From Candidatus Obscuribacterales bacterium (lineage in GTDB: Bacteria; Cyanobacteriota; Vampirovibrionia; Obscuribacterales; Obscuribacteraceae), in NCBI GenBank assembly GCA_965228855.1, contig CBDDIJ010000002.1:1600001-1664000 (forward strand): a stretch of 64,000 bases of DNA, in the 5' to 3' direction. Position 1 is the first letter of the stretch. Each line of letters begins with the position of its first letter. Made by a program: the position numbers. This document shows, piece by piece, positions 26,401-29,400 of this stretch.

Positions 26401-29400
26401 AGACCTACCGATACTATTGCCCGGCTCCCTTATTCAGCTCGTCAATAAGGTATTCGACGCCCTCGCATGTAACCTGGTAGCCTGAATTTGTTTTCGTAAT
26501 CATGGCATTATCAACTAAATGCTCGATTGATTTTGTGCAGAGGCTGTCTTCCAGTTGGAGAATTTCAGCGAGGTACTCCGCGGGCAAGGACGCATCAATC
26601 TGCAGAACGGAGGAGTAATAGATAAGAAGCGTATCTCTGTGGGCCGGTGGCGTTTTTGATAGGTCAAGCTTTTCGAGTTTCCTTACTTTCCATTCCAATA
26701 GAACTTGAATTATTGCCAATCGTGATTCTATTTCTTCCCAGTTGACCATGACCATTTCCTCTGCCGCTTCTTTATTATCGGTGCGGTGTGAGGCAGGAGC
26801 AAGTCCGCGTCAAAGTCGGACTCGCTCCCACTCCCAAAAGACCGTGGTTAAGGTTTCAACCGGTTGATGTCGCGTGGAAACAGCGCTGTTTGCTTGATTG
26901 TGGGCAAGCCTAGAAGTTGTTTCGTTATGCGTTCCAATCCGATTGCCAGACCACCGTGCGGCGGCATGCCGTATTTGAAGCACTGCAAATACTCCGCGAA
27001 GTCCTCGGGATTCAGACCACGGCCGGCTATTGAGTTGCAGAGCTCTTCGTACTCGTGGATACGCTGCCCGCCTGTCGTCACCTCGAGTCCGCGGAACAAC
27101 AAGTCGAAGCCGCGGCTCATCTTCGGCGAATTGCCGTTCGAGAGCGGTTCCGTCAGTGGATGGGTGTAGAACGGTCGTGCTGCCAGTGGATAGTGTTTCA
27201 CGTACAGAAGTTCGCAACCGGTCTCTTTGCGGAAGTGTTCGCACAGTAATCGCTCGCCTTCTGGGTCCAGGTCGCTCTCTCCCTCCTGCTTCCAACCGAG
27301 TTTTGAAGACAAAAGTTTCAACGCTTCAGTCAGGCTGATTTGAGGAATCGTTTCAAACTCAGGAACTTCAGCTCCGTACATCGCCAACTCTTCTACACAA
27401 GTTTCTTGTACGTGTGCGAAAATATGGCGCAGCAAGCGGACCTGCATGTTGATGATGTCTTGCTCCGATTCGATAAATCCCATCTCGAAGTCGAGGCTTA
27501 TGTACTCGTTCAGGTGTCTCGAAGTGTCGTGTTCTTCAGCGCGATAAACTGCTGCTGTTTCGAACACGCGTTCATAAACGCCGACCATGATTTGCTTGTA
27601 GAACTGTGGACTCTGAGCGAGAAACGCGTTAGTTCCAAAATAGTCGAGTTTGAACAGCTGAGCACCGCCCTCGGTACCAGTCGCCACAATCTTTGGAGAA
27701 TGAATTTCAACAAAGTTTTCCTTCGTAAGAAACTCGCGGAACGCTTGTGTGATTGCCGCTTCGATTTTGAAGATTGCCTTCACCTTTGGGTTTCGAAGAG
27801 TGATCGGTCTATAGTCAAGCAGCGTTGAAAGACCGAGCGAATCCATTTTTTGTTCTTTCGATAGCTCGACCGGCGGAATTTCTTTGTTATGGGCAAGTCG
27901 TTTGAGAACCGTCGCTTGAATCTCGGAACCGCCTTCCTTGCGCCCCTGCGCAACGACTAATCCTTGAACACGCACAGGTGTTTCAAGAACTATTTCACGT
28001 GCAACTGCGACAAGCGATTCTTTTTCGACGACTACTTGGATAATTCCTGAGGCGTCGCGAACGTTCAAGAAATAGAGTTTTCCAAGGTCGCGCAGCGAGT
28101 GTACGTGCCCGGCGATATGCACGACATCACCGATTCGTCGCGTAGCTTCCTTGACGGAAATTCGCTCCTCCGTACACTCACATTCCTCACATTCACTTTC
28201 CGATTTGCTTTTCAATTCAGTACTCATAACGCCTCCAAACAAAAAACCGCAACTCTCAGAGTCGCGGTCGTCGTATTTTTTGAGGTTGTTTACTTCGCTA
28301 ACACCACAAAACAGACGACCGCGCTGGGCGATTATCTGCGTCGTTATTATTATTGTTAGCGATGTTGAACAACACGATGTTGAAACCTAATTTTCCGCGA
28401 GCCGATTGCTTGCGATTTATTGATCCTACGGCCGACTTTTCGGTCGCGTCAATGATCTGTTAACTAACCCGCCAAAGTTTTTTTAGTCTGCGCAATTCAT
28501 CTTAGACATTGAAGTAGTATAAATACAACCAAAGACGGAGCGCGCCGAGATGACGCATTCAGAACCTGCTAGTCCTTGCGAGACTTTTCTCCGCAAAGTT
28601 CGAGATGTTCCGATTCCGGACGCAATCAATGCGGGGCTCGAGACCCTCGTGCAAGCCGTCGATGCTGAGCAGGGTTCGATATGTTTGATCGTTCATGATG
28701 TAATTAAGGTAGCCTACCGATTTGAGCGAGGTTCGCGTTCGACCGAGATTGATGCGGTCACCCTATCAGCGCAGAAAGCCATGCAACTGGTACTTGGGGT
28801 GATGGGAGCGCGATATGACATACCGATTTCGTTCGATAACTCGGACTCCGCGAAATTGCATTGGGCGCCGTTCTTTGAACTTTGTGGTGCGGACTATCGT
28901 TCTAACCTGATTGCACATCTTGGTTTTGGCGGAGCGTTCCTCGGAATTCTGACCGCTCAATCAAATCGTGGAGACTCGTTCTCCAGCGATCAATTAAGGC
29001 AATTCATGATGATGGCAAATGCAATTTCTTTCGCGATCCATCACGAAAGGCTTGTAGAGAAGCTCCAGGACGAAATTGCCTTTTTCGAAAGGGCGCATCC
29101 GAACTCCAGCCGGGCGGACCAAACCTGGGAAGGCTGGATCGCTGAGTCCAGGTCCATAGACGCGAACAGTGATTCGTAATCTTGTCCGAAGTGAGCGCAA
29201 CAGAGAAGAAAATCGATGGGCTTCCCAGCTGCGTCTAAAGAAGACGACTAAGTCTAATTCGCTTCTGATTCGCCGGAAGGTTCGGCCGACTCTGGCGCGG
29301 GGACAGGCTCCTTGCAGGACTCATCGGCGAGCTTTGCGCCTACGCTGTCGATGTTCATGATGTCGCCGAGCATCCACGACCAAATGTCCTTCTCGCCATC

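Follow-up and report, generated by a model that had tools for sequence, protein, structure and literature searches.

The gene at the centre of this analysis, aspS2 (26848..28227), encodes a 459-residue archaeal-type aspartyl-tRNA synthetase. Coordinates throughout are positions in the window, the whole 64,000-nt stretch of DNA that was analysed, and the entire element lies on its minus strand. Profile scores (PRK05159, 535.7 bits against a cut-off of 353; TIGR00458, 384.3 against 368.4) and intact class IIb motifs support the assignment; the protein lacks a GAD insert, its catalytic motifs are near-invariant across 83 orthologs, and its best solved relative is Thermus thermophilus AspRS2 (1n9w, E 1.4e-120). 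An earlier note on this DNA regarded the enzyme as an extra AspRS, and indeed a bacterial-type AspRS and an AsnRS of the same genome both score over their cut-offs. The 322-nt gap that the note placed upstream of the gene is found at 28228-28549, and the stretch is present without difference in two independent-run contigs, which may be its source.

The gap contains a sigma70-type promoter (28423..28452) in which an 18-nt spacer separates the -35 element TTGACG (28452-28447) from the -10 element TAGGAT (28428-28423); transcription would start near 28416. The pattern TTGnnn-16..18-TAnnnT occurs within 220 nt upstream of the codon run described below in 78 of 86 loci, against a mean of 12.5 (maximum 19) in 50 mononucleotide shuffles. 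Downstream lies the 25-codon leader ORF that the earlier note had described, running from a GTG at 28375 to a TAG stop at 28298 (VLFNIANNNNNDADNRPARSSVLWC), with a weak Shine-Dalgarno-like AGGT (28385..28388) 9 nt before the GTG. The alternative start codon, conceded in that note as a weakness, is answered by the relatives: an in-frame start lies between promoter and run in all 78 promoter-bearing loci (55 ATG, 21 GTG and 2 TTG), although a canonical start combined with an SD-like word, by our own SD rule, is seen in only 48 of 85. The ORF matches no NCBIfam or Pfam family. The frame upstream of it diverges in one close relative, and the contig of a related strain lacks one nucleotide at each of 28381 and 28389, both outside the ORF; no deletion falls inside it among the differences listed for that contig (40 of 73 substitutions listed). 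Across loci, the leader stop lies 66–105 nt before the aspS2 ATG.

The control codons (28331..28357) begin with the five consecutive Asn codons reported earlier (28357-28343). The Asp codons said to follow them are present, but an Ala separates the two (D-A-D, 28342-28334), and a further Asn completes the run. Both Asn and Asp occur in every run across the Obscuribacteraceae leaders, with both synonymous codons of each in use, and the run keeps a single frame and a fixed position relative to region 2, the antiterminator-forming segment described below. When codons are counted over a segment anchored on the RNA helix, Asn accounts for 297, Asp for 155, Lys for 6 and Glu for 1 of 594 codons in 66 distinct loci, which shows a run that matches the function of the downstream gene and is selected at the amino-acid level. 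Within this genome the leader is also the sole Asn- or Asn/Asp-rich match among 9183 candidate short ORFs, defined by their position 40–140 nt ahead of a longer, long-ORF reading frame.

The 148-nt leader folds at a z-score of -4.84, with 0 of 200 shuffles as good, and three helices are predicted. First, a 1:2 pause or anti-antiterminator hairpin (28306..28344) joins region 1 (~28344-28328) to region 2 (~28322-28306) at -16.3 kcal/mol (z -2.1, 6 of 200 shuffles as good; family-wide median -14.2, and -8 or lower in 61 of 65). Second, a 2:3 antiterminator (28261..28325) pairs the core of region 2 (28324-28311), inside the leader ORF, with region 3 (28275-28261), which is the 5' arm of the terminator; its energy is -27.8 kcal/mol over 28330-28260. 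Third, a 3:4 intrinsic terminator (28237..28269) consists of an 11-bp stem (28269-28245) and a U-rich tail. The hairpin and T-run proposed earlier stand, with the placement revised: the stem lies 18–42 nt before the ATG (28227) and the T-run about 10–19 nt before it. The Shine-Dalgarno sequence of aspS2, GGAGG (28232..28236), is outside the terminator stem.

These helices recur in the relatives. Automatic detection finds the terminator, which the earlier note had already seen in all 17 of its loci, at a median of -17.1 kcal/mol in 85 of 86 loci; the exception, L086, has the stem and fails the U rule. The terminator ends 16–49 nt before the ATG across loci and 18 nt before it in the window. The antiterminator, which the note had left unmodelled, exists and covaries as well. 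Cells changed on both sides number 113 for the terminator (38.1 when shuffled) and 92 for the antiterminator (52.6 when shuffled, and above all slid controls), with 0 of 500 shuffles as high in either case, in counts taken over related sequences that overstate their independence. In 61 of 66 distinct loci, region 2 finds a better partner in its own region 3 than in shuffled sequence, and the median pairing energy is -19.5 for cognate against -14.1 for non-cognate partners.

The earlier finding of a leader at 17 of 17 loci extends to 86 of the 88 Obscuribacteraceae loci that hold an ortholog together with DNA upstream of it, spanning 28 genera and AspS2 identities of 49–100%. The two leaderless loci, in G040 and G038, belong to genomes in which AsnRS is undetectable, and their enzymes group with a Clostridium sequence on a separate branch of the tree; they make a weak natural control because origin and AsnRS loss are confounded. 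A T-box suspected there by eye was searched for and not found. Outside Obscuribacterales, 8 of 63 GTDB loci are flagged at a loose threshold of 4 in 9 codons, and none of them has the leader-plus-terminator layout by eye; these loci and the AspS2 tree are without Deinococcus-Thermus members. The leader is present in 0 of 14 loci from the order of G286, the viral contigs yield no relative, and the plasmid collection gives one candidate among the 5 of 19 matches that were examined. A different leader family, in another phylum, ends in RAGPA.

Every anatomical feature of ribosome-mediated attenuation is thus found and conserved, in support of the earlier proposal, and it is very probable that a classical transcription attenuator of this type precedes aspS2 and that the enzyme most likely feeds GatCAB. 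The reading is built from promoter, ORF, codon selection, two exclusive helices, covariation, geometry and gene inventory, all taken from sequence, and leader translation, stalling and termination in vivo are what this anatomy would predict. RNA polymerase would begin some 40 nt ahead of the leader, which a ribosome would translate. With charged tRNA-Asn and tRNA-Asp in good supply, the ribosome would reach the stop codon and cover region 2, allowing the 3:4 terminator to form and leaving aspS2 untranscribed. If one of the two, chiefly Asn-tRNA-Asn, runs low, the ribosome would stall in the run, and region 2 would capture the terminator 5' arm before the 3' arm is made, permitting read-through into aspS2. 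AspS2 would then most likely make Asp-tRNA-Asn, amidated by GatCAB in tRNA-dependent asparagine synthesis, and would also add Asp-tRNA-Asp capacity; on both counts the gene would be regulated like an amino-acid biosynthetic gene.

Modelling of ribosome position is consistent with this switch. With the transcript cut before the terminator 3' arm, more than 50% of the 5' arm is sequestered in 85 of 85 loci when the ribosome sits mid-run and in 6 of 85 when it sits at the stop, a contrast that holds for ribosome footprints of 9, 12 and 15 nt. Five loci from a single genus have the leader stop 2 codons past the run; in one of these, L017, sequestration stays at 0.61 when the ribosome is on the stop. 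Folding at full-length equilibrium under a ribosome mask gives no clean switch: the terminator exceeds 0.5 in 62 of 85 loci mid-run and in 84 of 85 at the stop, and the antiterminator wins mid-run in only 23 of 85; the switch therefore depends on folding order, modelled here as the cut transcript. Naked RNA in the cut-transcript model has the arm sequestered in 69 of 85 loci; equilibrium alone would therefore not let the 1:2 hairpin shield the terminator.

An unlikely, though not negligible, variant keeps the attenuator and holds that asparagine is sensed alone and that Asp codons are kept for GAY:GUC pairing in the pause hairpin. Within the run, Asn codons lead and are about twice as frequent as Asp codons, GAY lies one transition from AAY, and 110 of 167 Asp codons are predicted to be paired in the 1:2 hairpin compared with 79 of 347 Asn codons, so that retention of Asp may be partly structural. 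However, 12 of 65 loci keep Asp although none of their Asp codons is in a pair. Ser AGY is likewise a single transition away from AAY, yet it is seldom used (AGC 7 against GAY 155), and there are leaders, such as that of L087 (NDDDD), whose run is mostly Asp and has a single Asn. In the cut-transcript model, stalls at Asp codons are about as effective as those at Asn codons and favour the antiterminator in 87–99% of cases; in-frame Asp codons, whatever keeps them, would stall a ribosome short of Asp-tRNA.

The specificity of the enzyme is a separate question. AspS2 probably charges both tRNA-Asp and tRNA-Asn, an assignment that rests on family membership. It is improbable, although it would leave the attenuator intact, that AspS2 is instead a spare discriminating or tRNA-Asn-preferring AspRS and that asparagine comes from an AsnB-like enzyme. 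The determinants of non-discrimination, which we take from the Deinococcus and Thermococcus literature to be Pro for Lys in the L1 loop and His for Trp in the anticodon-binding domain, give this alternative some room. The Pro is absent in the window protein, where Glu98 aligns with the Thermus Pro; it occupies that column in 6 of 83 orthologs and a column three positions earlier in 45 of 83, in a loop that aligns poorly. The His is present (His43) and poorly conserved in the family (Q 47, H 18, Y 12 and W 0 of 83). In the solved Thermus AspRS2 structures (1n9w, 3kfu), the lack of a GAD insert, the His (Thermus His23) and the catalytic motifs are shared with the window protein, and the L1-loop Pro differs from the window's Glu. 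Across the 83 orthologs the anticodon-reading residues Arg46, Phe53, Gln64 and Glu102 are near-invariant, and the L1 loop varies in length and sequence with no conserved residue; it holds no Lys or other conserved reader of base 36, which counts against this alternative.

Gene content bears on the same alternative from both sides. An AsnB-family gene scores over cut-off in 37 of 37 genomes, and another route to asparagine may therefore exist; in this genome, where AsnA was not found, the AsnB-like gene lies among glycosyltransferase-like ORFs and scores best against an exopolysaccharide amidotransferase model, under that model's cut-off. Two family members that are 96–98% complete (G039, G055) lack aspS2 at the search threshold, and charging of both tRNAs could also lie with the bacterial-type AspRS, as described for Bdellovibrio (PMC4206432). 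Against this, GatB (34 of 36 genomes) is kept alongside GlnRS (33 of 36) and AsnRS (77 of 86 leader genomes), and an Asn-dominated leader makes little sense before a purely discriminating enzyme. One tRNA-Asn also carries U1-A72, a GatCAB determinant (PMC9976931). Obscuribacteraceae mostly share the set of AsnRS, GlnRS and GatB with Deinococcus and Thermus, where AspRS2 and GatCAB make asparagine; D. deserti has the same set of AsnRS, GlnRS, GatCAB and two AspRSs (PMC4206432). Dual charging of tRNA-Asp and tRNA-Asn by AspS2 remains the preferred assignment.

A broader synthesis, speculative and doubtful when taken as a whole, joins these strands. The Obscuribacteraceae aspS2 clade, with the known Pro lost and the L1 loop unconstrained, would be an inducible tRNA-Asn-preferring aspartylase that catalyses the committed step of the family's asparagine synthesis, leaving the AsnB-like gene for envelope amidation. 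It would have been acquired in a single transfer along with an Asn/Asp attenuator that Deinococcus-Thermus also has, and this would be one among several functioning leader-peptide attenuators (Asn/Asp, Leu, Met) of a phylum for which attenuation is not known to be documented. Such an enzyme would be an AspRS counterpart of Helicobacter GluRS2.

Two further readings dispense with attenuation by codon sensing. It is very unlikely that the leader is a nascent-peptide arrest sensor of the TnaC/SpeFL type, with a metabolite in the tunnel, or that control is exerted on translation at the aspS2 ribosome-binding site: the leader peptide is unconserved outside the Asn/Asp run (21–51 codons, variable C-terminus) and the U-tailed terminator is nearly universal, although a short extension in the full-length fold of the window pairs part of the aspS2 SD, and the RAGPA ending of the leader family in another phylum resembles what we take to be RAPP-type arrest motifs. 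The earlier report of no Rfam family here holds, with a best E of 2.2, far below gathering score; five matches at E 2–8 are attributed to chance, the T-box model (RF00230) matches nothing within 28000-28700 with E values up to 10, and none reaches gathering score in L001 or L034. An untranslated or incidental ORF within a T-box-like or protein-binding RNA, or before a fixed terminator, is the least credible reading, since the GTG start and unevenly satisfied SD rule are outweighed by the lack of any Rfam match near gathering score, synonymous variation in one frame, the upstream start in every promoter-bearing locus and the fixed distance to region 2.

The classical attenuators (trpL, hisL, leuL, thrL, ilvL, pheL) share the promoter, control codons, 1:2, 2:3 and 3:4 helices and U-tail with the aspS2 leader, and the thr and ilv leaders sense two amino acids, as proposed here. 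The aspS2 leader differs in its Asn/Asp specificity, in having no Rfam match, in its target, a second and probably mischarging synthetase, and in its host phylum, Cyanobacteriota. The mechanism itself is textbook, and the surprise for a specialist is accordingly modest. Leader attenuators are known before the aminoacyl-tRNA synthetase genes pheST, trpS2 and leuS (PMC1262725), and His leaders precede hisS paralogs (PMC2965389). For cyanobacteria, PMC4833913 states that there are no reliable data on attenuation; the present locus suggests that attenuation of the classical type operates in non-photosynthetic Cyanobacteriota.

The closest precedent is Deide_10019, listed in Supplementary Tables S9, S10 and S4 of de Groot 2014 (PMC4007540) as a putative leader peptide that belongs to the gene for the non-discriminating AspRS in Deinococcus deserti; because it is already in print, an Asn/Asp leader before such a gene is not a new kind. 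It is likewise a short Asn/Asp-run ORF (MFAALANNNDNDPH) before an archaeal-type AspRS2, proposed as a transcription attenuator, like-built and with a mapped transcription start. Its stop-to-start gap of 88 nt falls inside the 66–105 nt range, and small residues precede the run in both. Deide_10019 is leaderless, with 14 codons and a stop 2 codons past the run, whereas the Obscuribacteraceae leaders are mostly leadered, have 21–51 codons and usually contain region 2 inside the ORF. The published table rows give Deide_10019 without RNA model, comparative data or test. Among the literature matches listed, none names an Asn/Asp attenuator in its title or abstract start; subscription papers and other supplements could hold more. 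The present data turn an untested supplement row into a well-supported structural model, with 86 natural variants and a covarying terminator and antiterminator, and thereby make an Asn/Asp-sensing attenuator directly testable in a laboratory strain. Most likely, as judged from these sequences, the aspS2 attenuator raises AspRS2 in non-photosynthetic relatives of cyanobacteria when charged tRNAs are short. This points to tRNA-bound asparagine synthesis being run by Obscuribacteraceae as a biosynthetic pathway that can be induced.

In Clostridium acetobutylicum, tRNA-dependent asparagine formation is reportedly under T-box control (Saad et al. 2012). The logic is alike, in that the indirect route to Asn-tRNA-Asn is turned on when charged tRNA runs short. 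Unlike the leader proposed here, a T-box binds uncharged tRNA directly and does not need translation, and there is none at this aspS2. T-boxes do precede homologs elsewhere, with one (L123) at 117 bits, over cut-off, and four (L171, L173, L243, L263) below it. The archaeal-type aspS family thus appears to be governed by leader peptides in some lineages and by T-boxes in others.

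On the minus strand of the window, a sigma70-type promoter match (TTGACG, 18 nt, TAGGAT; 28452-28423) is followed by a 25-codon leader ORF running from GTG at 28375 to TAG at 28298, a terminator with an 11-bp stem and a U-rich tail (28269-28245; identified by folding and sequence), a GGAGG site, and the ATG at 28227 of aspS2, which encodes an archaeal-type AspRS of 459 residues. The leader ORF with five Asn codons and the hairpin plus T-run that the earlier note had placed upstream of the gene are both present, and nothing near an Rfam gathering score was found at the locus, as it had also reported; the Asp codons it described after the Asn run exist, although the two are split by Ala (Asp-Ala-Asp-Asn). 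The fold of the 148-nt leader beats 200/200 dinucleotide shuffles. A genome-wide scan of 9183 short ORFs, each 40-140 nt upstream of a long ORF, yielded no other Asn- or Asn/Asp-rich ORF that has a terminator; it overlooks genes inside operons because an SD-bearing downstream start was required. A divergent ORF (28550-29179, plus strand; 209 residues, weak GAF match, E 6e-4) and a downstream ORF (26414-26755, minus strand; 113 residues, weak winged-helix matches) flank the locus, and neither shows any sign of belonging to the attenuator element.

The aspS2 leader is very likely a real Asn/Asp leader-peptide transcription attenuator found throughout the Obscuribacteraceae. The gene is detected at E 1e-80 or better in 91/107 genomes of the order; 90 of these loci were examined (all except that of G015), and 88 remain after setting aside two that lack upstream DNA. 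A short ORF with an Asn/Asp run is present in 86/88, extending the 17/17 loci of the earlier note, and the terminator it had seen in all 17, with compensatory changes, is detected automatically in 85/86. Both amino acids occur in all 86 runs, and the leader ORF ends 66-105 nt before the gene. Promoter matches lie upstream at 78/86 loci, where mononucleotide shuffles give 12.5, and at each of the 78 an in-frame start codon stands between promoter and run (ATG 55, GTG 21, TTG 2); the alternative start held to be a weakness is indeed GTG in the window, but a start is available throughout these loci. In a nine-codon window anchored on the RNA helix, so that the selection criterion is not itself counted, the 594 codons of 66 distinct loci include 297 Asn, 155 Asp, 6 Lys and 1 Glu. 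Metagenome contigs carry the same leader in 8/9 loci with upstream DNA at an identity of at least 55%. For one of the 86 leaders (L073, G028:C29, at a contig start) the script called the wrong start and overlooked the locus, which was added by hand; faulty assembly may account for both its 18-codon Asn run, which lies at the contig end, and the premature stop in its aspS2. At another locus (L060, G013:C5) the leader is intact and aspS2 contains an in-frame TGA after ~183 codons, reflecting a pseudogene or a sequence error.

Class-wide, aspS2 is present in 66/72 other family members and in 0/178 genomes outside the family. In a FastTree phylogeny of 37 of the 90 loci, with Deinococcus and Thermus absent, a branch with support 100 separates the 34 leader-bearing enzymes from the rest. 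Distribution and branch together would fit a gene acquired once, by the ancestor of the family.

An antiterminator, absent from the anatomy first described for this locus, is found as pairing between region 2, the 3' half of the leader ORF, and region 3, the 5' arm of the terminator. This helix reaches -27.8 kcal/mol (28330-28260) versus -17.8 for the terminator fragment, and region 2 can alternatively pair with the Asp codons in a hairpin of -16.3 kcal/mol; the 1:2, 2:3 and 3:4 helices have the layout of trp-type attenuators. Covariation, counted on a MAFFT alignment of 66 distinct leaders, supports both competing structures: cells changed on both sides number 92 for the antiterminator versus 52.6 in shuffles and 113 for the terminator versus 38.1 (0/500 each, above all slid controls), with shuffles that ignore relatedness and a structure taken from the window sequence. 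When a 12-nt ribosome mask is applied to a transcript cut before the terminator 3' arm, more than half of the terminator 5' arm is sequestered in 85/85 loci with the ribosome inside the run, versus 6/85 with it at the stop, and the contrast persists with masks of 9, 12 and 15 nt. Three results run against this model. First, when the full-length leader is folded to equilibrium with the ribosome mid-run, the terminator prevails in 62/85 loci. Second, truncated RNA with no ribosome on it prefers the antiterminator as well (69/85 loci). Third, the leaders of five loci of one genus (L017-L021) end two codons past the run, like the Deinococcus deserti peptide, with the stop codon immediately ahead of region 2; run-to-stop length is 7-17 codons in all other loci. 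These results lead us to infer a switch that would operate kinetically.

The Asp codons may be retained partly for structure, since 110/167 have a predicted pairing partner in the 1:2 hairpin. However, 12/65 loci have no paired Asp codon, some leaders are Asp-dominated, and in the model a stall is effective at 87-99% of Asp codons and at 87-98% of Asn codons. Dual sensing of Asn and Asp, with Asn as the main signal, is the better reading.

The aspS2 protein passes the score thresholds of both PRK05159 and TIGR00458; among solved structures, its nearest relative is Thermus thermophilus AspRS2. The genome also encodes a bacterial-type AspRS, AsnRS, two GlnRS matches and GatB; AsnA was not found in it (95% complete). 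One tRNA-Asn carries a U1-A72 pair, described as the amidotransferase determinant in the available text of PMC9976931. AsnRS occurs in 77/86 leader genomes, and near-complete genomes encode GlnRS (33/36) and GatB (34/36). Deinococcus and Thermus share such a set, and there asparagine is formed on tRNA by GatCAB together with the additional archaeal-type AspRS (PMC4206432, in part); we infer that aspS2 may be regulated as an asparagine-biosynthetic gene. An AsnB-family gene in 37/37 genomes weakens this reading; in this genome it sits among glycosyltransferase-like ORFs (labelled by eye). So do the residues that we take to determine non-discrimination, a His and an L1-loop Pro: the His is present in the window protein and in only 18/83 orthologs, and the Pro position is Glu in the window protein. 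The L1 loop has zero conserved residues and the other anticodon-reading residues are near-invariant, a pattern that would fit relaxed reading of base 36; the enzyme is probably non-discriminating. Of the two GlnRS genes over cut-off (C5:870389-871996 and C4:35621-37153), the second lies on a 182-kb contig of this genome, whose contamination is 5.8%, and may be foreign. G039, a 96% complete family member, has a bacterial-type AspRS and GatB, but AsnRS, GlnRS and the archaeal-type enzyme were not detected in it, which implies that its bacterial-type AspRS is non-discriminating.

Other leaders precede related genes. In the phylum of G283, archaeal-type aspS homologs of ~40% identity are preceded at 6/12 loci (L270-L275) by an Asn/Asp leader of a separate type. 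It ends NNNDDNNPIRRRAGPA, has another helix core and comes with a terminator and an antiterminator of its own. Candidate Asn-containing leaders with downstream hairpins also stand upstream of aspS in unrelated lineages, with an NHNDND run and terminator (L236) and with a VNNNG run (L313, Rhizobium leguminosarum plasmid CP049735.2). A T-box scoring over cut-off precedes the homolog at L123, and matches below cut-off do so at four further loci. At one of these four, L243 (~763-1200, 61.5 bits), and at L256 (by eye only), a T-box-like element, a short Asp-rich ORF (MDHDNDRDDNDLWEGV; MADDHDGNPWERA) and a hairpin lacking a U-tail stand in this order before aspS, possibly a tandem of T-box and leader peptide. 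Elsewhere in this genome, a Met-rich leader, MQKHVTMSMAMQMPSARGWRCCSRFIA (C2 ~1923954-1924135, minus strand; L290, L291), begins ~7 nt downstream of a promoter match (TTGACA-17-CATAAT) and has a U-tailed terminator (-25.9 kcal/mol) before a gene resembling a Cys/Met-metabolism PLP enzyme (label by eye). Such leaders with terminators accompany the 6 closest copies of this gene (72-100% identity) and were not seen at the other 14/20 loci, most of which follow another gene; the leader is a candidate methionine-codon attenuator. A Leu-rich leader, MSINETVLNQSNRPASLLGLLLLSTC, with hairpin and U-run precedes a leuA-like gene (C3 ~3640840-3641020, plus strand; label by eye).

Leader attenuators are described before the synthetase genes pheST, trpS2 and leuS (PMC1262725, in part) and before hisS paralogs (portions of PMC2965389). 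Attenuation in cyanobacteria is said to lack reliable data in the available text of PMC4833913, and the accessible parts of PMC2659441, PMC2700814 and PMC2494555 do not describe an Asn/Asp leader. Such a leader has also been published for the D. deserti non-discriminating AspRS: Deide_10019, MFAALANNNDNDPH, is given as a putative attenuation leader (de Groot et al. 2014, PMC4007540, Supplementary Table S9), with transcription starting at its own ATG and the gene 88 nt downstream. In the portion of that source available, Deide_10019 is listed with neither an RNA model nor a test. The mechanism at aspS2 is the classical one; mechanism and concept are already known, and what is new is the host lineage and the depth of structural evidence.
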